Below are positions 9,801-20,174 of a stretch of DNA of 42,769 bases, one piece after another. The DNA is taken from assembly GCA_001775965.1 (NCBI GenBank), contig MEZG01000043.1:1-42769 (forward strand), written 5' to 3'. The position numbers were made by a program, and so were the translations under genes. How positions within the stretch are numbered: position 1 is the first letter of the stretch; each line of letters opens with the position of its first letter. Source of the DNA: Candidatus Bathyarchaeota archaeon RBG_13_60_20 (GTDB lineage: Archaea > Thermoproteota > Bathyarchaeia > TCS64). Below the pieces are notes generated by a model. It was given only the letters and a program-made list of their open reading frames with translations. It was not told where the DNA came from and ran no database searches.

Positions 9801-12362
9801 ATGGCGAAGAAAGTTACCTCGCCTGAAGAATTCTTTGGACACCGGATGGGAGCCGACAGGAAGATCGCCCGTTGGGACAGGATCGTGGAGTACTTCCACA
9901 GGCTCCAGAAGGAGTCCAAGAGGATCAAAGTCATTCACATGGGGCCCTCCACGGAGGGGCACCCCTTCCTCACCGTCATAGTCACCAGCGAGGAGAACAT
10001 GAAGAACCTGGATAGGCTCCAGGACATCAACGTCACCCTCACCAACCCGGGGGAGCTCACAGAGGAGGAGGCGAGGCCCCTTGTGGCCGAAGGCAAGGCA
10101 GTCGTCATCCAGAGCATGAGCCTCCACGCCTCGGAGATCGGGGGCACCCAGATGTCCCCAGAGCTGGCCTACGAGCTGGCAACCCGGGAGGACGAGGAAG
10201 CCAGACGCATCAGGGACAACGTAGTCAGCATCATGGTGCCCAGCTTCAACCCAGACGGTCAGATAATGGTCACGGACTGGTACAACAAGTACCTGGGCAC
10301 CGAGTACGAGGGCGTGAACACCCCGTTCCTGTACCACAAGTACACGGGCCACGACAACAACAGGGACGCCTTCATGACCAACATCGTAGAGAGCCGCTAC
10401 ATGGCCAGGCTCATGTTCCACGACTGGCCGCCTCAGGCCTATCAGGACCACCACCACATGGGCAGCTACGGCGCCCGCCTATACGTGGCGCCTTACAGCG
10501 ACCCCATCCATCCCCACGGCGACCCCCTGGTCTGGCGCGAGCTGGCCTGGTACGGGGCCCACATGGCCTATAAACTGGAGGAGGCGGGGAAGAGCGGCAT
10601 CGTCAACGCTGCCATATTCAGCGGTTGGGCCCACCTGGGATTCCACTGGTTAGGCATCTACCACAATATACCCAGCATGCTCACCGAGTCGGCCTCGGCC
10701 AAGCTGGCCACCCCCCTCTTCATCCACCCCGAGCAGCTGAAGGAGGAGACTAAGATGAGCACCCTCGTTGGCACGAGGATGCTGCCCCATTACAAGCCCA
10801 CCACCAACTTCCCCAACCCGTGGCCCGGCGGCTGGTGGAGGCTCCGCGACATCGTGGAGCAGCAGAAGGTGGCCTCCTGGGCGCTACTGGACCACATGGC
10901 CCGCAACAAGGAGACGATTCTGTGGAACGCGTACCAGAAGGCCGTGAGGCAGACGGAGAGGGGCGCCGAGGATCCCGTTATGGCTTACGTGGTGCCGTTG
11001 TCCCAGCACGACCCGCGCACCATGGAGCTCATGATAGAGAAGCTCCTCGTCCAGAACGTCGAGATATACAGGGCCAAGAGCCCGTTCACTGGGGACGGGG
11101 TGGTCTACGAGGAGGGCAGCTACGTCATCCCCCTCGCCCAGCCAAAAATGGGGCTCATCAAGACGCTGCTGGGCCGGACCCGGTTCCCGGACGACAGCTT
11201 CACCAGGATGCCCGACGGCTCACCCCACAGGCCCTACGACTCGGCCACGGACACCATGGCCGAGTTCATGGGCGTGGCCGTGGACCCTGTGGAGTTCATC
11301 ACGGAGGTCGAGCTGGAGCCCATGGACGATTACAAGCAGCCAGTGGGCGCCGTGGACGAGTCCAGCAAAGTGGGCTTCCTCCTGGACGCCAGGGAGAACC
11401 ACGCATTCAAAGCCGTGAACATGCTGCTGGCCGAGGAAGTCCCCGTCATGCGCGTCACCGAAGCCTTGATGGCGGGGGACTACGAGTTGCCCCCCGGCTG
11501 CTTCATAGTGGAGCCTGGCCACGAGGAGAAGCTCACAGACATCGCCGAGGAGACGGGCGTGAGCTTCCACGCCCTCGTCGAGCTGAAGGCCGACACTGCG
11601 CCGGTTAAGCAGCTGCGGGTCGGCATGTACCAGCGCTACTGGGGCGGCAACATGGACGAGGGCTGGACCCGCCTATGCCTGGAGCAGTACTGCTTCCCCT
11701 ACGCGACCCTCATGGACGAGGAGATCAAGAAGGGGGGCCTCAGGGAGAGCTACGATGTAATAATTCTGCCCAGCGACGCGCCGGCCATGATCACGGGCGG
11801 CGACGAGCTGAAGAAGTGGTGGAAGGAGCAGAGGCAGGGCTGGGAGCTCCCCGAGTACCCGCCGGAGTACAGGAGCGGCCTAGGGGACGAGGGGAAGAAG
11901 GCTCTCAGGGAGTTCGTGGAGAAGGGTGGTACCCTCTTGTGCCTCGGAGAGTCGTCCATGTACGCCGTGGACGCCCTTGAGCTGAAGGTGGCCAACGTGC
12001 TTGAGAAGGTGCCCAGTAGGGAGTTCCACTGTCCGGGCAGCACCCTCCACATTGATGTGGACACAGAGCACCCCATAGCCTACGGGATGCCCGAGGACGC
12101 TCTGGCCCTCTTCTGGGGGGACCCGGCCTTCAAGATAATCCCCAGCGCCGACAACCACAAGTACAGTGTGATAGCCTCCTACCCCGACTCCGACATCCTG
12201 GAGTCGGGCTGGCTTGTGGGCGAGGAGCGTATAGCCAACAGGATTGCCGCGCTCCAGGCCGAGGTCGGCGAGGGGAAGGCTGTACTCATAGGGTTCAAGT
12301 GTCAGCACAGGTGCCAGACCCACGGAACCTTCAAGCTGCTCTTCAACAGCCTCCTAGGCTAA
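9801..12362 (+). CDS. Large M14-family zinc carboxypeptidase-like protein (853 aa)
   Basis: An HxxE zinc motif (SLHASEIGG) sits in an N-terminal carboxypeptidase-like domain, followed by a long C-terminal extension. A T6 run follows the stop (12369-12375). Confidence 0.7.
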   Translation: MAKKVTSPEEFFGHRMGADRKIARWDRIVEYFHRLQKESKRIKVIHMGPSTEGHPFLTVIVTSEENMKNLDRLQDINVTLTNPGELTEEEARPLVAEGKAVVIQSMSLHASEIGGTQMSPELAYELATREDEEARRIRDNVVSIMVPSFNPDGQIMVTDWYNKYLGTEYEGVNTPFLYHKYTGHDNNRDAFMTNIVESRYMARLMFHDWPPQAYQDHHHMGSYGARLYVAPYSDPIHPHGDPLVWRELAWYGAHMAYKLEEAGKSGIVNAAIFSGWAHLGFHWLGIYHNIPSMLTESASAKLATPLFIHPEQLKEETKMSTLVGTRMLPHYKPTTNFPNPWPGGWWRLRDIVEQQKVASWALLDHMARNKETILWNAYQKAVRQTERGAEDPVMAYVVPLSQHDPRTMELMIEKLLVQNVEIYRAKSPFTGDGVVYEEGSYVIPLAQPKMGLIKTLLGRTRFPDDSFTRMPDGSPHRPYDSATDTMAEFMGVAVDPVEFITEVELEPMDDYKQPVGAVDESSKVGFLLDARENHAFKAVNMLLAEEVPVMRVTEALMAGDYELPPGCFIVEPGHEEKLTDIAEETGVSFHALVELKADTAPVKQLRVGMYQRYWGGNMDEGWTRLCLEQYCFPYATLMDEEIKKGGLRESYDVIILPSDAPAMITGGDELKKWWKEQRQGWELPEYPPEYRSGLGDEGKKALREFVEKGGTLLCLGESSMYAVDALELKVANVLEKVPSREFHCPGSTLHIDVDTEHPIAYGMPEDALALFWGDPAFKIIPSADNHKYSVIASYPDSDILESGWLVGEERIANRIAALQAEVGEGKAVLIGFKCQHRCQTHGTFKLLFNSLLG

Positions 12363-14007: not shown

Positions 14008-14274
14008 TTGATGGACATGCCCGAGGAGCCAGTATACATAGCCGAGGTCGTCAGCGTCAAGAAGAGCTGCAGCGCAGGCCACGAGGCGGGCGACAGGTTC
14101 GAGATAAACACCCATAAGACGGGTGGCATCTGCGGCTACTGCTACCACGAGCTGTTCCCCACCATGATGAACATGTGCTACGGGGGACAGATACCCTGGA
14201 TGAACAACCAGGAGTTCAATTACGAGTGCCCGGACAGCTACAACCTGGTCACTTTCAAGGTCACAAGGAAGTAG
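14008..14274 (+). CDS. TIGR04076-family small Cys-rich protein
   Basis: The 88-aa protein has CSAGHEAGDRF...GGICGYCYHELFP, typical of the TIGR04076 family (recognised from memory). The start may be ATG 14011. Confidence 0.6.
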   Translation: MMDMPEEPVYIAEVVSVKKSCSAGHEAGDRFEINTHKTGGICGYCYHELFPTMMNMCYGGQIPWMNNQEFNYECPDSYNLVTFKVTRK

Positions 14275-14305: not shown

Positions 14306-14313
14306 AAAAAAAA
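14306..14313 (-). terminator. Oligo-T (T8) archaeal-type terminator after the four-gene membrane operon
   Basis: A8 on the + strand is T8 on the - strand, beginning 13 nt after the TAG stop at 14326-14328. Confidence 0.5.
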
Positions 14314-14325
14314 TAGGATTGTTTT

Positions 14326-15003
14326 CTACCGGCCGCTGTACCACTTGATCTTCTTCGTGTAGTACCCGTAACCCAGCCCCAGGGCCACGAGCAGCAGCAT
14401 GGCGTAGGTGTATAAGGCCACCTCCGGCCTCAGCATGTCCACGAGCCGCCCGATGACCAGCTCGAACCTGAAGCTGACGGTCTGCCCGTAGGTGACGCCG
14501 AAGGCCGCCAGGAGGAAGATGCGCCCGGTCTGGTTGACGTACTTGTAGGGCCCCTCCATCTGGGCCGTGAAGATGAAGTAGGCGGCGGCCGTGACCGTCC
14601 CCACTATCATCACGAGGTTGTTGATGTTGTTCAGAGGCAGAACGGTGGCGTTGATCTGGCCGAGGAAGTCCGCCATGACGCTCGTCCTGATGGCCAGGCC
14701 GAGGCCCGCGCCCACGGTCACCGCCACGGGGTACCTGGAGAGCCAAAGCCACTCGATCTTAAGCCTGGAGAACAGCATCACGCAGAGGATAACAGCGACG
14801 ACGAAGATGTAGTTGCCCTGAAGCACGGGGTTGATGGCGCTGGTCCTGACGTAGTTCCAGTTGGTGGCGAAGATGAAGCCGCCCAGGATGCCCATATACA
14901 GGTTCTCGGTGAACTTGCTCAGCGGGTTGTCGCCTATCAGCACGGAGTACGCGCCGATGGATACGAAGGAGCCCGCTATGAGTCCCAGTAAGAAGCTGTC
15001 CAT
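14326..15003 (-). CDS. Uncharacterised polytopic membrane protein (about 6-7 TM), gene 4 of the membrane operon
   Basis: Its ATG abuts the upstream stop (TAG|ATG at 15001-15006). Multiple hydrophobic helices are present, with no known motif. Confidence 0.7.
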   Translation of the reverse strand: MDSFLLGLIAGSFVSIGAYSVLIGDNPLSKFTENLYMGILGGFIFATNWNYVRTSAINPVLQGNYIFVVAVILCVMLFSRLKIEWLWLSRYPVAVTVGAGLGLAIRTSVMADFLGQINATVLPLNNINNLVMIVGTVTAAAYFIFTAQMEGPYKYVNQTGRIFLLAAFGVTYGQTVSFRFELVIGRLVDMLRPEVALYTYAMLLLVALGLGYGYYTKKIKWYSGR

Positions 15004-15846
15004 CTACTTAGCTCCCCCCTCTCTCCTAGCTACGAAGTACAGCACGTTACCAAGGACCACCAGTAACGCCCAGAGCAGGCCGCCGAAGTTGGTTGCCATA
15101 GCCTGACCCAGGGCGAGCCCGGGCATGCCCATCAGGTACTCGTACTCGGCCGAGCCCCTGACCCCGCCGATGATCCCTATCATCTGGCCCGAGTTGATAT
15201 AGGGCGTGTAGTTGGGCACCTCGTTAGTGGTGCACATACCAGTCATAGGCACGCCGAAGGGCGTGACTATCTGCCTGATGCCGAAGGGTATGCTGCCCTC
15301 TGAGCCACCCCACCAGAAGAGCGCCGCGAAGTCGGATGCCTTGTTGATGTCACTCATGAGGGGTATCTGACCTATGGGGGTCCCGAAGTGGTCCTCAGTC
15401 TTCACGCTGCGAATGTCGTTCGCGAAGGCCGCCACGCCGGACTCTCCGCCCGGAACGTAGCCCATGTGAACCCAGTTCACGCCGTTCTCTGCTGCGACCC
15501 CGGAGGGTAGCTTGGCTAGCGCGTTATCGATGGCCGTCACGGTCCACGCAGCCGTCTCCGTGCCTATGCTGAAGAAGACCAGTTTGATGTCCTTGCTCAG
15601 CAGGTGCACGATCTGCACCTCGAGGCCTGGGCCGCCCTGCGGGTACGTGGCTGCGCCGAGCCCGCCCTCGATGAGGACGACCGAGCCTGAGGGTATGGAG
15701 TCGGCGAACTCAAAGGAATCCCTGGAGTACTGCTGTATATTCATTGGGAGTATTACCGGGCTGAGTATCGGGAAGGCCAGCGCTATGAACATCAGCGCGA
15801 AGATGATCCTCTGGTCAAGCGCCAGCATCTTATCCATCAGACTCAT
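15004..15846 (-). CDS. Uncharacterised bitopic membrane protein (N- and C-terminal TM helices flanking a ~200-aa domain), gene 3
   Basis: Its start overlaps the upstream stop by 4 nt (15843-15846). Terminal helices are RIIFALMFIALAFPILSPVIL and GGLLWALLVVLGNVLYFV. Confidence 0.7.
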   Translation of the reverse strand: MSLMDKMLALDQRIIFALMFIALAFPILSPVILPMNIQQYSRDSFEFADSIPSGSVVLIEGGLGAATYPQGGPGLEVQIVHLLSKDIKLVFFSIGTETAAWTVTAIDNALAKLPSGVAAENGVNWVHMGYVPGGESGVAAFANDIRSVKTEDHFGTPIGQIPLMSDINKASDFAALFWWGGSEGSIPFGIRQIVTPFGVPMTGMCTTNEVPNYTPYINSGQMIGIIGGVRGSAEYEYLMGMPGLALGQAMATNFGGLLWALLVVLGNVLYFVARREGGAK

Positions 15847-16496
15847 TCCGAGTCCCTCCTCTCCTCCCTGATCCCCAGGTGCTCCTTCTGCCGGCCCATG
15901 AACACCCTGACGCCCAGGCCCATGATCCCCAGGCTGGTCCCGATGATCATGCCCCTGAACCCGGCCCCACTAGGGAAGCTCCTGATCCATTCGCCCAGCG
16001 GCACGACCGGCGGGAACAGTATTGCGCCTATAGGGATGAGCATCAGGAGCACAACCAGTGCGCACACGAGTAGGACCGCGGCGTTCCAGTTCCTGGCTCT
16101 CAGGACCCTGTACGCGGCCGACGTGATGTAGAAGGCGGTCAGCGAGTAGAGGGCTGCGCCGATGGGTGACGTCATGTTGTTGTAGATCCACAGGAACGTG
16201 GTGTCCCTGACGTTCAGGACGCCCAGCCCCGCCGTGACCACGAAGGCCACAACGTAGACGATGCTGTAGTACCATTCGCTGCCCCTGGTGCCGACCTTTT
16301 TGGTGTGGAATATGGTGAGCACTATGGTCCCCAGGATGAGCGCCGTCGCCGAGATGATGGTAACGAACGAGCGGAGCGTGACATTCAGGCTCGTCACGGA
16401 CGCGGGCATCGGGAAGAAGAACTCGATGATCATCAGGAGCCCGATTACTGCGGTCAGTATCATCGGGATCTGCATCTTAACTAATCTATCTGACAC
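15843..16496 (-). CDS. Uncharacterised polytopic membrane protein (about 6 TM), gene 2
   Basis: A GTG start is preceded by a GAGGTGA SD in the 11-nt gap after gene 1. Confidence 0.7.
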   Translation of the reverse strand: MSDRLVKMQIPMILTAVIGLLMIIEFFFPMPASVTSLNVTLRSFVTIISATALILGTIVLTIFHTKKVGTRGSEWYYSIVYVVAFVVTAGLGVLNVRDTTFLWIYNNMTSPIGAALYSLTAFYITSAAYRVLRARNWNAAVLLVCALVVLLMLIPIGAILFPPVVPLGEWIRSFPSGAGFRGMIIGTSLGIMGLGVRVFMGRQKEHLGIREERRDSE

Positions 16497-16507
16497 TTCA
16501 TCTCACC

Positions 16508-17287
16508 TCACATAGACAACAGTCCCTTGATGCTCATACCAAGGGTTATGAGAACGGACCCGAGCACGATCAGTATCACCGCGATGAACTTGCCGACGTC
16601 TTGCCCTGCCAGGGACGAGGACACGGTGGGGTCCTCCGACACGTAGGCTCCGAGGGCGTATAGCTCCTCGCCAATGATGCTGTAGTCGCAGATGGCCACC
16701 AGGAACGGTATGTTGTGTGTGGTGTCTGTTCCGCCGAGCATCATCGCCCCCACGCGGGCCGCGTTCTCGGTGAATATAACGGCCTTGTGGTACCAGCTCC
16801 CGAGGAAGAAGGCCCCAGCCATCCCGTCGCTCCACATATGGTTGATGATGTACATCCTGTCCGCACCGTCGGGGAGGTACATCACCGCCTCATCCAGCTT
16901 CAGCTCGTCCTGCTTGTTCTCGGCCTTGTACGCCTCGTCAACTATCTCGCTCGCGATAGTGTAGGCCAGGCCCTGGGTCACCGGGACGAAGAACCTGGCC
17001 CCCAGCCTGGCGGCGCTCCGCGCCGTGTAGGCCAGTATCTGGAAGGCGGCGACGGTCGGGGCCAGCACGCTCGGGTTGTCCATGGTCACAGTGTCCATGA
17101 GGTAGTAGGCGGGGCGCCCCATCTCAACGCACCTTCCGAGGATCTCGTCGATCTGGTTCACCGCTGCCAGTCGTCTGAGTTTAGGTAGTTTACCTGAGTA
17201 CGCTCTCTGCATGTAGTAGATTATCGATCCTGCTATGATTAACAGGGAAAGTAGGCCGATGACTCGGCCCTCAACAATTAGTGCCAA
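16508..17287 (-). CDS. Uncharacterised membrane protein (N- and C-terminal TM helices), gene 1
   Basis: TTG start at 17287. The next in-frame Met would delete the first TM helix. It lies downstream of a 253-bp AT-rich promoter region. Confidence 0.65.
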   Translation of the reverse strand: MALIVEGRVIGLLSLLIIAGSIIYYMQRAYSGKLPKLRRLAAVNQIDEILGRCVEMGRPAYYLMDTVTMDNPSVLAPTVAAFQILAYTARSAARLGARFFVPVTQGLAYTIASEIVDEAYKAENKQDELKLDEAVMYLPDGADRMYIINHMWSDGMAGAFFLGSWYHKAVIFTENAARVGAMMLGGTDTTHNIPFLVAICDYSIIGEELYALGAYVSEDPTVSSSLAGQDVGKFIAVILIVLGSVLITLGMSIKGLLSM

Positions 17288-17540
17288 TTGTCATTCCCCA
17301 AGAAGATGTGCACGTATTTACTATAAATATTTTCAAGGGTGGACACGAAAAATATTAGTTAAACGCATTAAATTGTTGGTTTTTCACACTCGCCCTTTAT
17401 CATTTAAGCCCCAACCCTCACTGAATTAATATCAAGCGATGGGCGTTCAACATAGATGTTAAAAGGTTAGCTACAGCAATGTGACGCATTATAAAAAAGT
17501 TTATTAGTTGTACAGAGTCACGTGCTACGAATTTTAAAGG

Positions 17541-18872
17541 ATGGATGTTGTGGGCGAGGCGGCAGAGGGAAGGGGCATGTTCTGGTTCATACAGGGCAAC
17601 ATCAAGGTTCTGATGTTCTGCCGCGTCCTGTGGAGCTTCAGCACCAGCATCATCTACCCCTTCTTCAGCCTCTACATCCTTGCCCTGGGGGGCAGCAGCA
17701 CGGAGATCGGGCTCATCAGCAGCCTGGGGCTCATCGCGGGCATGGTCCTCTACCCCCTGGGCGGCTACATCGCCGACAGGGCCGGCCGCGTCAAGCTCAT
17801 AGGCTACAGCACTTTCCTGTACGCCTTCGCTCACCTGTTCTTCGTCTTCGCCACCAACTGGCAGATGATAGCCATCGGCCAGTTCTTCAGCCAGCTCCTG
17901 CTCTTCTACATGCCCGCCATGAACGCCCTGGAGTCTGACAGCCTCCCTCCGGGTGTCCGGGGCAAGGGGTTCGCCATTATAATGGCTGTGCCCGGCTCGG
18001 TGAGGATCATTGCCCCGCTGGTGGGCGGCTACGTCATTGAATGGTTTAAGACCTCCAGCGGCATGACTGGGAACGAGGCTACGGCGCAGGCTGTGCGCAT
18101 CTGCTGGGGGATCGCTTTCCTCACGGGCCTGCTTGTGGCCTGGATAAGGCTGAGGAACCTCAAGGAGACCATCACCGAGGAGGAGGGCAGCCACAAGATC
18201 AGTTTCAGGGAGATACCGGGGATGGTCATCCCCGCGTACAGGAGCATACTGGACAGCGTCAAGTGGATGAACAGGAGCCTCCGCGTCATCGTGATCCTGG
18301 AGATGGTGGCCAGCTTCTTCATAGCTATGAGCGCCCCCTTCTACGTGGTCTACGCCACAAAGCTCATCGGGCTATCCGAGGCCCAGTGGGGGCTGGGCAT
18401 GTTCATCAGCGGCCTCATCGGCATCATGCTTGCGTTCCCCCTGGGCAGCGCGACCGACAGGGTTGGCCCTAGGAGGATGATCATGTTGGGGATGTTCCTG
18501 GTACCCTTCATGATCTTCAGCTTCCAGTACTCGGGTGGGTTCCTGGGCGTGGCAGCCGTCCTTATCGGCGTGCAGATATGCAACAACATCATGGTCCCCG
18601 CCTTCAGCACCATCATCGCAAACACGATCCCAAGGAGCCGCAGAGGCCGCCTCTACAGCCTGATAGGCGAGCGGGGGATATCCATTAACTTCGGGAACTT
18701 TTGGGGCGGGGGCTTCCTCCTGTTTCCACCGGCCGCGCTGGGAGCGTACGTTGGCGGGTGGGTCTACCAGCTGGACCCCAACCTGCCCTGGATCATTACG
18801 AGCGGGGCCCTGCTGGTCTGCGCCCTGATGGTGTACCTCTTCGTCCAGGAGCCTGAGGAGGCCCAGCACTAG
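17541..18872 (+). CDS. MFS transporter
   Basis: It has about 12 hydrophobic helices and MFS motif A (GGYIADRAGRVKL). Confidence 0.8.
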   Translation: MDVVGEAAEGRGMFWFIQGNIKVLMFCRVLWSFSTSIIYPFFSLYILALGGSSTEIGLISSLGLIAGMVLYPLGGYIADRAGRVKLIGYSTFLYAFAHLFFVFATNWQMIAIGQFFSQLLLFYMPAMNALESDSLPPGVRGKGFAIIMAVPGSVRIIAPLVGGYVIEWFKTSSGMTGNEATAQAVRICWGIAFLTGLLVAWIRLRNLKETITEEEGSHKISFREIPGMVIPAYRSILDSVKWMNRSLRVIVILEMVASFFIAMSAPFYVVYATKLIGLSEAQWGLGMFISGLIGIMLAFPLGSATDRVGPRRMIMLGMFLVPFMIFSFQYSGGFLGVAAVLIGVQICNNIMVPAFSTIIANTIPRSRRGRLYSLIGERGISINFGNFWGGGFLLFPPAALGAYVGGWVYQLDPNLPWIITSGALLVCALMVYLFVQEPEEAQH

Positions 18873-18971: not shown

Positions 18972-20174
18972 ATGCTGAAGATAAACCGGGGCCAGCTGCA
19001 CGCTTCAGTGTCGAAGGTCTACGAGTCCCTCCTGCCCCTGTCGTTTAACCTGACTGGGCTGGTAGCCGGGGTATTCGTGGCGACGTTTTCAGGTGTCATA
19101 GCCACTGTGCCATGGGGGTTCCTGATCTACCCGGGGATTCTGAGCATCAGGGGCGCATTGGGCGGTCTCTTCGCGGGGAGACTGAGCACGGCCCTGCACC
19201 TTGGAACGGTGAAGCCGCAGCTCAGAGACAACACCGTGCACCTCAGCATCCTTGTGAAGTCCATCGTCGCCTTGACCCTGCTCAGCGGTGTCTTCATAGG
19301 CTTGACGGGCTCGGTCTTCAGCGGCCTATACACAGGCTTCAGCGCCGTGGAGTCATTGAAGATAATCGCTGTCACCATCGCTACCATGGCTGTCTCCAAC
19401 GTGGTGATATCACCGATCACGTTCGGCTTGTCAATAGTATCGTTCAACAGGGGCTACGACCCTGACGTGGTCCTCTATCCAATAGTGTCCACGGTCGCTG
19501 ACATCATGATCACGATCACGTACATCGCCATGGTCTGGCTGTCCCTGAGCCAGACGGGATTGATCATGATCACTGCAGTAGCGACCGGGTTCACGGCCTG
19601 GTCGGCTCTTGTCATTAGGGAGAACATGGCAGAGGACGAGTTCAGCCAGACCATCAGGGAGTTCCTGATCACGCTGGTGATAGTCTCCGTTATTGTGGGC
19701 ATCACGGGGACCACCCTGGAGCGCATCTCCGAGAGGATACAGGGGGCCAGGGAGATCTACGCAATATACCCGGCGCTCATCGACACTATCGGCGACGTCG
19801 GCTCGATCATAGGCTGCACGCTCACCACGAAGCTGGCCCTCGGGACCGTGCCGTCCCACCCGAGGCGGCTCAGCGACCTCAAAGGCGAGCTCGGCGAGGT
19901 TGTGAGCGCATGGGGTGCATCGGTTATCCTCTTCGGGATGTACGCGCTCATCGCCTCGCTGATCTACGCCCCGGCGGGACTGGCCGCCCTCACCCTAAGG
20001 CTCCTGGCGCTTAACCTCATCTCGGTCCCGATCATAATCCTGGTGGTCTTTGTCATCACCTACGCCACATACTCCAGGGGGTGGAACCCCGATAACTTCC
20101 TCATCCCGATAGAGAGCAGCCTGGCCGACACCGTGACCACTCTGGCGCTGCTCCTGGTCCTGCTATTGGGTTGA
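18972..20174 (+). CDS. Divalent-cation (Mg2+) transporter with two MgtE-type membrane domains (SLC41-like architecture)
   Basis: There is an internal duplication: PGILSIRGALGGLFAGRLSTALHLG and YPALIDTIGDVGSIIGCTLTTKLALG. No cytosolic N/CBS domains are present. A GAGGTG SD lies 8 nt upstream of the ATG. Confidence 0.6.
   Translation: MLKINRGQLHASVSKVYESLLPLSFNLTGLVAGVFVATFSGVIATVPWGFLIYPGILSIRGALGGLFAGRLSTALHLGTVKPQLRDNTVHLSILVKSIVALTLLSGVFIGLTGSVFSGLYTGFSAVESLKIIAVTIATMAVSNVVISPITFGLSIVSFNRGYDPDVVLYPIVSTVADIMITITYIAMVWLSLSQTGLIMITAVATGFTAWSALVIRENMAEDEFSQTIREFLITLVIVSVIVGITGTTLERISERIQGAREIYAIYPALIDTIGDVGSIIGCTLTTKLALGTVPSHPRRLSDLKGELGEVVSAWGASVILFGMYALIASLIYAPAGLAALTLRLLALNLISVPIIILVVFVITYATYSRGWNPDNFLIPIESSLADTVTTLALLLVLLLG

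Follow-up and report, generated by a model that had tools for sequence, protein, structure and literature searches.

What do four tightly packed genes, lying on the minus strand of a 42.8-kb stretch of DNA from a Bathyarchaeote (the whole stretch analysed, hereafter the window) and encoding membrane proteins of 259, 217, 280 and 225 aa, actually build? An earlier note, made from the sequence alone, described them as a translationally coupled operon of unrecognisable membrane proteins with alternating bitopic and polytopic architecture, and proposed that they arose by duplication of a two-gene module and form a hetero-oligomeric membrane complex of unknown function, possibly an undescribed transporter or membrane machine. 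The observation behind this proposal is confirmed, apart from a few details given below, while the interpretation is only partly supported. The four genes, here named P1 to P4 in the order of transcription, turn out to be one copy of a cassette conserved in the same order across Bathyarchaeia and well over a dozen bacterial phyla, none of whose members has a known function, a solved structure or a paper in the library searched, so that it is probably an undescribed membrane machine or transporter.

Positions of the four genes and of the sequence features around them in the window
Feature	Positions	Strand	Description
Divergent gene	from 17541	+	MFS transporter
Intergenic/promoter region	17288-17540	-	253 bp, AT-rich (35.6% GC against 61.7% for the window)
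TATA box	17322-17327		TTTATA, starting 40 nt upstream of the P1 start codon, preceded by a purine-rich BRE-like GAAAA
P1	16508-17287	-	259 aa, TTG start; DUF6754 family protein
P2	15843-16496	-	217 aa, GTG start; 6-TM polytopic protein of an unnamed family
P2/P3 junction	15843-15846	-	4-nt overlap (ATGA)
P3	15004-15846	-	280 aa, ATG start; two TM helices flanking a predicted Rossmann-like domain, unnamed family
P3/P4 junction	15001-15006	-	direct abutment (TAG|ATG)
P4	14326-15003	-	225 aa, ATG start; polytopic protein (5-7 TM) of an unnamed family
T8 run	14306-14313	-	12 nt after the P4 stop; likely archaeal oligo-T terminator

The coupling of the four genes reads directly from the sequence. 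The P1 stop and the P2 start are separated by an 11-nt gap (TGA-GGTGAGATGAA-GTG), in which the GAGGTGA overlaps the stop and lies 6 nt before the GTG, and the two following junctions are an overlap and an abutment, as the earlier note had described. The T8 run, however, begins 12 nt after the last stop codon and not 13 as claimed. The AT-rich region upstream holds a TATA box placed as expected for an archaeal promoter, although promoter function is here inferred from sequence only, in the same way as terminator function is inferred from the behaviour of archaeal oligo-T tracts. That the genes are real is supported by a GC3 of 0.80-0.93, by the tens to thousands of homologues found for each protein, and by the fact that the TTG start of P1 matches the N-termini of its homologues. 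An Rfam scan of the window revealed no RNA family.

Are the four proteins truly unrecognisable? This term is wrong for P1, which belongs to the catalogued but uncharacterised Pfam family DUF6754 (PF20539), with an E-value of 1.1e-55 and 189.1 bits against a gathering cut-off of 27, over model positions 10-251 of 257; it is also 100% identical to a protein of Ca. Bathyarchaeota archaeon RBG_16_57_9, and bacterial P1 orthologues match the same family at E ~1e-120. By contrast, P2, P3 and P4 have no Pfam, NCBIfam, PADLOC or PDB relative, and Pfam searches with 40-43 diverse, cross-phylum members of each of the P2-P4 families gave only scattered noise. In particular, no ABC_tran or permease family, no MFS or other carrier family, no Rnf-Nqr, FMN_bind or other redox family and no defence model of PADLOC-DB was matched by any of the four proteins, nor was any PADLOC model matched by the three frequent neighbours seen at related loci. 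Profile searches of all four families against PDB sequences returned nothing at E<0.1, those run for the two cytoplasmic partners introduced below were equally uninformative, and Foldseek against PDB with the predicted structures of P1 and P3, the two subunits modelled, gave only non-specific matches (E >= 2e-3, TM <= 0.38), short of the E<1e-3 and TM>0.5 required for a structural match. Literature searches on DUF6754, PF13941, GlmL, and combinations of ASKHA, KOW and barrel-sandwich proteins found no relevant paper in the library searched.

The four genes are nonetheless a conserved block. Among 84 related loci, 73 keep the order 1-2-3-4, most exceptions being contig ends, and these loci belong to Nitrospirota, Planctomycetota, WOR-3, Zixibacteria, Acidobacteriota, Bacillota, Bathyarchaeia and others; MAGs carrying the cassette include those of species related to Singulisphaera and Symbiobacterium. 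The proposal thereby passes the synteny criterion that had been set for it beforehand. At least 575 DUF6754 stretches were found in species-representative genomes, and the P2 family alone counts 1,994 representatives at the 50% cluster level with E<=1e-3. Nine of the loci hold two to three tandem copies of the cassette and, in all nine, identity between paralogous copies ranks P1 (50-67%) above P2 (40-58%) above P3 (34-43%), P3 being the most divergent subunit.

How the proteins sit in the membrane was addressed by hydropathy, charge statistics and AlphaFold models. The presence of one N-terminal and one C-terminal hydrophobic helix in both P1 and P3 is confirmed by hydropathy and by the models, which predict for each a TM helix, a Rossmann-like (beta-alpha)6 domain and a C-terminal TM helix, long in the case of P1 (pLDDT 89.3 and pTM 0.84 for P1, pLDDT 94.1 and pTM 0.90 for P3). 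The two soluble domains are, however, predicted to lie on opposite membrane faces. P1 would be N-out, domain-in and C-out by the positive-inside rule, since K+R within 15 residues of the membrane amounts to 6.3 on the domain side against 0.2-0.3 at its termini, and bacterial P1 carries a signal-like segment and an fn3-like ectodomain before TM1, which fixes N-out. P3, with basic termini and an acidic domain, would be N-in, domain-out and C-in. P2 has 6 TM helices, with both ends inside, whereas the count for P4 is ambiguous, between 5 and 7, where about 6 had been claimed for both. Motifs conserved across the families include GRxxEMG, GT, PFF, DYxxIGEE and GQDxGK in P1, A-x-x-F-x-x-S-A-A-Y-R-A-F-R-A-R at TM4 of P2, and DNP..K..E, WLSR, YFFFS and FGxxFGYTVMxR in P4. 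In addition, conserved Arg, Glu, Asn and Gln residues lie in or next to the TM segments of P2 and P4.

About half of the related loci (39-44 of 84) also encode, on the same strand and next to the cassette, a GlmL-family ASKHA ATPase (PF13941) of roughly 610 aa and a 375-aa barrel-sandwich/KOW protein. This extended form is not found here: tblastn with six GlmL-like or 375-aa representatives, including archaeal ones, detected neither gene in the window, where the genes neighbouring the cassette are unrelated, give no substrate clue and include no ABC gene.

Taken together, these data are best read as an obligate four-subunit hetero-oligomeric membrane complex, conserved as a fixed-order cassette (DUF6754, 6-TM protein, external-domain protein, polytopic protein) in Bathyarchaeia, other archaea and more than fifteen bacterial phyla. 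The existence, conservation and architecture of this complex are considered near-certain, even though its assembly is deduced without support from a multimer model or an experiment and its anatomy rests on models and topology statistics, whereas transport is a favoured inference only and its mechanism a tentative one. In this view, P2 and P4 would supply the membrane-embedded core, for a total of roughly 15-17 TM helices, and the complex would move or relay something across the membrane, most likely a small-molecule substrate, with P3 as the tethered outer recognition subunit, P2 and P4 as the pathway, and P1 as the conserved inner coupling or docking domain. Where the cytoplasmic module is encoded alongside, it would probably dock on P1 and supply ATP-dependent work; in this Bathyarchaeote, the membrane module would either work alone, for example ion-coupled, or use a partner encoded elsewhere. 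The divergence ranking of the tandem copies is the pattern expected if the outer subunit sets specificity and the inner one is a conserved engine or docking site, and tandem expansion of whole cassettes is typical of substrate-specific uptake systems. Nevertheless, faster evolution of outward-facing domains is a general trend and therefore weak evidence, no homology to any transporter family or fold was found, the predicted P3 domain does not resemble a periplasmic binding protein in Foldseek but only generic SDR/ADH Rossmann folds (TM<=0.34), and the ATPase module is absent from about half of the loci.

In terms of architecture, the cassette can be compared to binding-protein-dependent importers of the ABC type with a membrane-tethered binding subunit, with which it shares two polytopic subunits of about 6 TM each, one outward-facing alpha/beta domain that varies between paralogous cassettes, one conserved cytoplasmic domain and paralogous expansion of the whole operon. 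It differs from them in that the cassette holds no nucleotide-binding ABC domain, Walker motif or match to an ABC permease family, in that the predicted P3 fold is a single Rossmann-like domain rather than a two-lobed binding protein, and in that the only associated ATPase is of the ASKHA fold. The internal structural repeat seen in secondary carriers was also looked for, but no similarity between the N- and C-terminal halves of P2 or P4 was detected.

Other readings can be weighed against this one. One possibility, though an unlikely one, is that the complex is a trans-membrane scaffold or envelope machine, in which a GlmL-like ASKHA ATPase would work on the inside through membrane-anchored subunits to organise or remodel something on the outside, by analogy with MreB-MreC-MreD, FtsA-FtsQ/W or PilM-PilN-PilO. 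The same-strand link to an ASKHA ATPase in about half of the loci, the alternation of bitopic-like and polytopic subunits with domains on either face, the external fn3-like ectodomains of bacterial P1 and the large inserts in an outer loop of some P2 variants would fit such a machine. However, no homology to MreC/D or PilN/O exists, the ATPase belongs, by its profile matches, to the GlmL/hydantoinase branch, closest to hydantoinase/oxoprolinase enzymes and mutase accessory proteins, whole-cassette tandem paralogy is unusual for morphogenetic machines, and the cassette occurs in archaea, monoderm-type Bacillota and diderm bacteria alike, so no single envelope structure can be its target. Somewhat less likely still is a membrane-bound enzyme complex, whose two Rossmann-like domains would bind a nucleotide, sugar-phosphate or cofactor and modify a lipid, glycan or other membrane-associated substrate, P2 and P4 serving as anchor or substrate channel. 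The weak top Foldseek matches (SIS sugar-phosphate binders, Sir2, glycosyltransferases and SDRs) and the many near-invariant charged residues of P1 (R38, R52, E55, E174, D201, E207, E208, D230 and K233) would be compatible with a ligand or active site, but no glycine-rich dinucleotide-binding motif or other known catalytic signature was recognised, and the poor conservation of the outer domain is unusual for a catalytic domain.

The duplication proposed in the earlier note, which would make P1/P3 and P2/P4 ancient paralogues in a pseudo-symmetric complex, is refuted at sequence level by the criterion set for it and is regarded as very doubtful. P1 and P3 do share the order of their secondary-structure elements (TM, helix, six beta-alpha units, long TM helix) and similar sizes, as do P2 and P4 in size, but the Rossmann-like doubly wound fold is among the commonest ones, so convergence of the plan is easy. 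BLASTP found no significant P1/P3 or P2/P4 similarity, the similar C-terminal ends put forward for P1 and P3 not being significant (E 0.22). Profile-profile comparisons by hhalign, with archaeal and with deep cross-phylum profiles, gave no support (all six pairs under 6% probability with the deep profiles), a domain-only global alignment scored no better than reversed, shuffled and block-shuffled controls, the local probability being 7.8%, P2 and P4 have no shared halves, and the P1 and P3 domains face opposite sides of the membrane. Least likely of all is an ion-translocating redox or energy-converting complex on the Rnf/Na+-NQR plan, suggested by the RnfC_N/NqrA_N-type barrel-sandwich domain of the 375-aa neighbour (best E 3e-7) and by a subunit plan that resembles NqrA/F, NqrC and NqrD/E, with about 6-TM subunits and others anchoring a soluble domain on either face. 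It is already largely refuted by the absence of cofactor-binding residues: no sequence or profile similarity to any Rnf/Nqr subunit was found, conserved Cys or His are almost lacking (only C200 in P1 and isolated His), there are no conserved Cys clusters and no flavin-binding or flavinylation motif, and the barrel-sandwich protein is absent from the window.

One cannot rule out, although it remains improbable on present evidence, that the cassette is the membrane part of a previously undescribed class of machine, for example a primary active transporter energised by the ASKHA-fold (GlmL-family) ATPase acting through the DUF6754 cytoplasmic domain rather than by an ABC, P-type or rotary ATPase, and present in thousands of bacterial and archaeal lineages. 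What was already known is limited to DUF6754 as a catalogue entry covering one of the four subunits; the other three have no family model at all, and current annotation would label all of them as hypothetical proteins, in spite of their presence in environmentally important groups such as the nitrite-oxidising Nitrospira, Planctomycetota, Acidobacteriota, Zixibacteria and Bathyarchaeia. A complex this widespread, this tightly co-inherited and this often multiplied in tandem is likely to do something basic at the cell membrane. If its frequent ASKHA partner really drives it, this would be a new way of powering a membrane process, while a more modest outcome, namely a new family of uptake systems, would still fill a recurrent blank in genome-based metabolic models of uncultured microbes.

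GlmL/MutL proteins are accessory to B12-dependent glutamate and ornithine mutases, but the corrinoid-binding idea that this prompted found no support, as no B12-binding domain appears among the top 50 matches in the Foldseek searches with P1 and P3, no conserved DxHxxG motif is present, and no mutase gene was noticed among the recurrent neighbours. In the same line, a biotin/lipoyl-carrier role for the 375-aa protein was rejected because no invariant Lys sits in the hairpin. As for the GlmL-like protein itself, it matches PF13941 at E 1e-130 but scores below the NCBIfam equivalog cut-offs for GlmL and Or-4 (234 against 475 bits), is linked to membrane proteins, and carries a C-terminal extension beyond the PF13941 match, which ends near residue 489.

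The four minus-strand ORFs, termed P1 to P4, lie exactly where the earlier note had placed them, so that its observation is confirmed (their coordinates, together with those of the other features, are collected in the table below). The junctions also read as it had described: P1 and P2 are separated by an 11-nt spacer in which GAGGTGA overlaps the stop codon, P2 and P3 overlap by ATGA, and P3 directly abuts P4 as TAG|ATG. A T8 tract is found 12 nt after the last stop codon. The 253-bp spacer upstream of P1 has a GC content of 35.6%, compared to 61.7% for the window, and contains a TTTATA motif 40 nt before the start codon, which, as inferred from the sequence, fits an archaeal TATA promoter. 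A GC3 of 0.80-0.93 and the abundance of homologues show that these are real genes, and P1 is 100% identical to a protein of Candidatus Bathyarchaeota archaeon RBG_16_57_9, which identifies the source as a bathyarchaeal MAG.

Positions of the cassette, of other features of the window and of features cited from related loci (handles beginning with L denote the fetched loci related to the cassette)
Sequence	Positions	Strand	Feature
Window	16508-17287	-	P1, 259 aa, TTG start
Window	15843-16496	-	P2, 217 aa, GTG start
Window	15004-15846	-	P3, 280 aa
Window	14326-15003	-	P4, 225 aa
Window	14306-14313		T8 tract
Window	17288-17540		AT-rich upstream spacer
Window	17322-17327		TTTATA motif
Window	14008-14274	+	Cys-rich ORF, 88 aa
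Window	18972-20174	+	MgtE-like protein, 400 aa
Window	9801-12362	+	M14 zinc carboxypeptidase-domain protein, 853 aa
Window	17418-18194	-	Shadow ORF, 258 aa, antisense to the MFS gene
L049	1974-5359		Recurrent module next to the cassette
L002	2251-5213		Recurrent module next to the cassette
L057	9106-12638		Recurrent module next to the cassette
L066	4483-6762		Bacterial P1 homologue with fn3-like ectodomain
L001	6001-7098		Exception to the cassette, DUF6754 alone
L004	5198-8345		Exception to the cassette
L035			Exception to the cassette
L036	5084-6349		Memo-like / AmmeMemoRadiSam system protein B gene (Nitrospira)
L082	9271-10587		Memo-like / AmmeMemoRadiSam system protein B gene (Nitrospira)

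In terms of family assignment, P1 is a clear member of Pfam DUF6754 (E 1.1e-55). The description of the four proteins as unrecognisable, made in the earlier note, is therefore too strong, although DUF6754 has no assigned function and no paper mentioning it was found in the library searched. In contrast, P2, P3, and P4 match nothing in Pfam or NCBIfam, nothing in Pfam when 40-43 cross-phylum members of each family are scanned individually, nothing in PADLOC, and nothing in profile searches against all PDB sequences. The P2 family alone nevertheless has 1,994 representatives at the 50% cluster level with E<=1e-3, and 1,065 at E<=1e-10, these being large families that curated libraries have simply not modelled.

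A scan of one genome per species with the DUF6754 alignment gave at least 575 confirmed stretches, and the six-frame ORFs of the 84 loci fetched were then searched with the four proteins of the window. Homologues of all four lie in the order 1-2-3-4 on one strand in 73 of these loci, while most of the others are cut by contig ends. The hosts include 18 Nitrospirota, 8 Planctomycetota, 6 WOR-3, 6 Zixibacteria, and 6 Bacillota (including MAGs assigned to Symbiobacterium), the other hosts being Fermentibacteria/Aegiribacteria, Ignavibacteria, Acidobacteriota, Eisenbacteria, Elusimicrobia, Cloacimonadota, and several candidate phyla. Five loci are archaeal and belong to Bathyarchaeia, to a Nitrososphaerota-labelled MAG, and to an unclassified archaeon. 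Conservation of the block in other genomes, which had been set beforehand as a test of the proposal, is thereby decisively established, and the main new fact is that the window holds one copy of a pan-phylum cassette. Nine loci (L009, L016, L025, L041, L045, L046, L067, L070, and L083), mostly from Zixibacteria and Ignavibacteria, carry two or three complete cassettes in tandem. Besides, one archaeal MAG (L005 and L007) and one MAG labelled Pseudomonadota (L008 and L010) carry two divergent cassettes on separate contigs. Exceptions to the cassette are L001, where DUF6754 stands alone next to a GWxTD-domain gene, L004, where it sits between an MlaE-family permease gene and a 516-aa protein that only weakly resembles P2, and L035.

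The interpretation put forward in the earlier note is only partly supported since, whereas the synteny holds, its proposal of a duplicated two-gene module fails every sequence test. BLASTP of P1 against P3 and of P2 against P4 gives only short matches between TM helices, and hhalign of the P1 and P3 families gives a probability of 5.7%, while with deep cross-phylum profiles all six pairs are under 4%. A global alignment restricted to the soluble domains scores 3.7, compared to averages of 3.2 for both column-shuffled and block-shuffled controls (SD 2.3 and 2.8, respectively), and the local probability is 7.8%. In the same line, the halves of P2 and P4 are unrelated to each other.

The AlphaFold2 models built with family alignments are confident for both P1 (pLDDT 89.3, pTM 0.84) and P3 (pLDDT 94.1, pTM 0.90). 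Both models show the same plan, namely an N-terminal TM helix, a helix, six beta-alpha units forming a Rossmann-like three-layer sandwich, and a long C-terminal TM helix, and it is this shared plan that the earlier note had sensed. However, Foldseek searches against the PDB give only non-specific Rossmann matches: the P1 model hits SIS domains, Sir2, and a glycosyltransferase, with a best E of 5.5e-3 and TM<=0.38, and the P3 model hits SDRs and alcohol dehydrogenases, with a best E of 2.3e-3 and TM<=0.34. Family-averaged hydropathy and charge counts place the P1 domain in the cytoplasm, K+R being 6.3 next to the membrane on the domain side against 0.2-0.3 at the termini, and place the P3 domain outside, with basic termini and an acidic domain. 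Bacterial P1 homologues (e.g. the proteins with handles P0108-P0116, and that of L066) add before TM1 an N-terminal signal-like segment and a 100-500-aa ectodomain, fn3-like in L066, that the archaeal proteins lack, which independently fixes an N-out orientation. P2 is a 6-TM protein with N-in/C-in topology, and P4 has 5-7 TM helices. Some P2 homologues of 300-500 aa (e.g. P0297, P0325, and P0385) have a large insertion upstream of query residue ~98, either in an outer loop or N-terminal. Finally, almost no Cys or His residues are conserved, which argues against Fe-S or haem chemistry.

Clustering of the flanking ORFs in the other genomes and targeted searches revealed a recurrent module encoded on the same strand as the cassette, usually directly upstream (e.g. 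in L049, L002, and L057). This module consists of a protein of roughly 120 aa, a GlmL/MutL-family ASKHA ATPase of roughly 610 aa, which matches PF13941 at E 1e-130 but falls below the NCBIfam GlmL equivalog cut-off, and a protein of roughly 375 aa with an RnfC_N/NqrA_N/biotin-lipoyl-type barrel-sandwich domain, a strongly conserved central region, a KOW-like C-terminus, and about 50 invariant residues. The ATPase occurs in 39 of the 84 loci and the 375-aa protein in 44, and, of the 57 loci with enough upstream sequence, 28 have the ATPase directly upstream. The window has neither gene. In 13 Nitrospirota loci, including the Nitrospira loci L036 and L082, a Memo-like / AmmeMemoRadiSam system protein B gene directly follows the cassette.

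With regard to evolutionary rates, comparison of paralogous cassettes within the same locus shows that P1 is always the most conserved (50-67% identity), P2 is intermediate (40-58%), and P3 is the most divergent (34-43%), in nine of nine loci. The same ranking holds across orthologues.

Taken as a whole, the analysis itself establishes a real operon that encodes four distinct families, strictly co-inherited in a fixed order, with two Rossmann-like domains on opposite membrane faces and no relative of known function. What goes beyond these data, and is inferred, is that the four proteins would form an obligate membrane complex of four subunits that relays or transports something across the membrane. 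In this view, P3 would be the variable outer recognition subunit, P2 and P4 the membrane pathway, and P1 the conserved inner coupling domain, which in many lineages would be served by an ASKHA ATPase module. This transporter-like reading is the favoured one, but remains tentative. One cannot exclude that the cassette rather encodes an ASKHA-linked trans-membrane scaffold or envelope machine, although this seems unlikely, and a membrane-bound enzyme using the Rossmann-like domains appears somewhat less likely still. The ancient-duplication model, which bears on the origin of the cassette and is compatible with any function, is doubtful, whereas an Rnf/Nqr-like energy converter is nearly excluded by the lack of cofactor ligands. 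Since no known kind of system accommodates the cassette, since no defining feature of any family considered is present except DUF6754 membership, and since no literature was found in the library searched, it is regarded as categorically new, its function being inferred only and its structural description resting on models of P1 and P3.

In the window itself, the neighbours of the cassette are unrelated to it and comprise a beta-lactamase-like hydrolase, two MFS carriers, an MgtE-like protein, and a 2-hydroxyacid dehydrogenase. The MgtE-like protein has two MgtE-type transmembrane domains and no Pfam hit other than MgtE, the cytoplasmic N-domain and CBS domains usual in MgtE being apparently absent. 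The Cys-rich ORF, which has no Pfam match, is convergent with the end of the operon, its stop codon lying about 50 nt from that of P4, while the 853-aa protein combines its M14 zinc carboxypeptidase domain with a weak C-terminal BPL_N-like region. Finally, long ORFs found opposite real genes, such as the one antisense to the MFS gene, are shadow ORFs as expected in GC-rich DNA and not genes, and the same effect inflated some ORF lengths in the high-GC bacterial loci.
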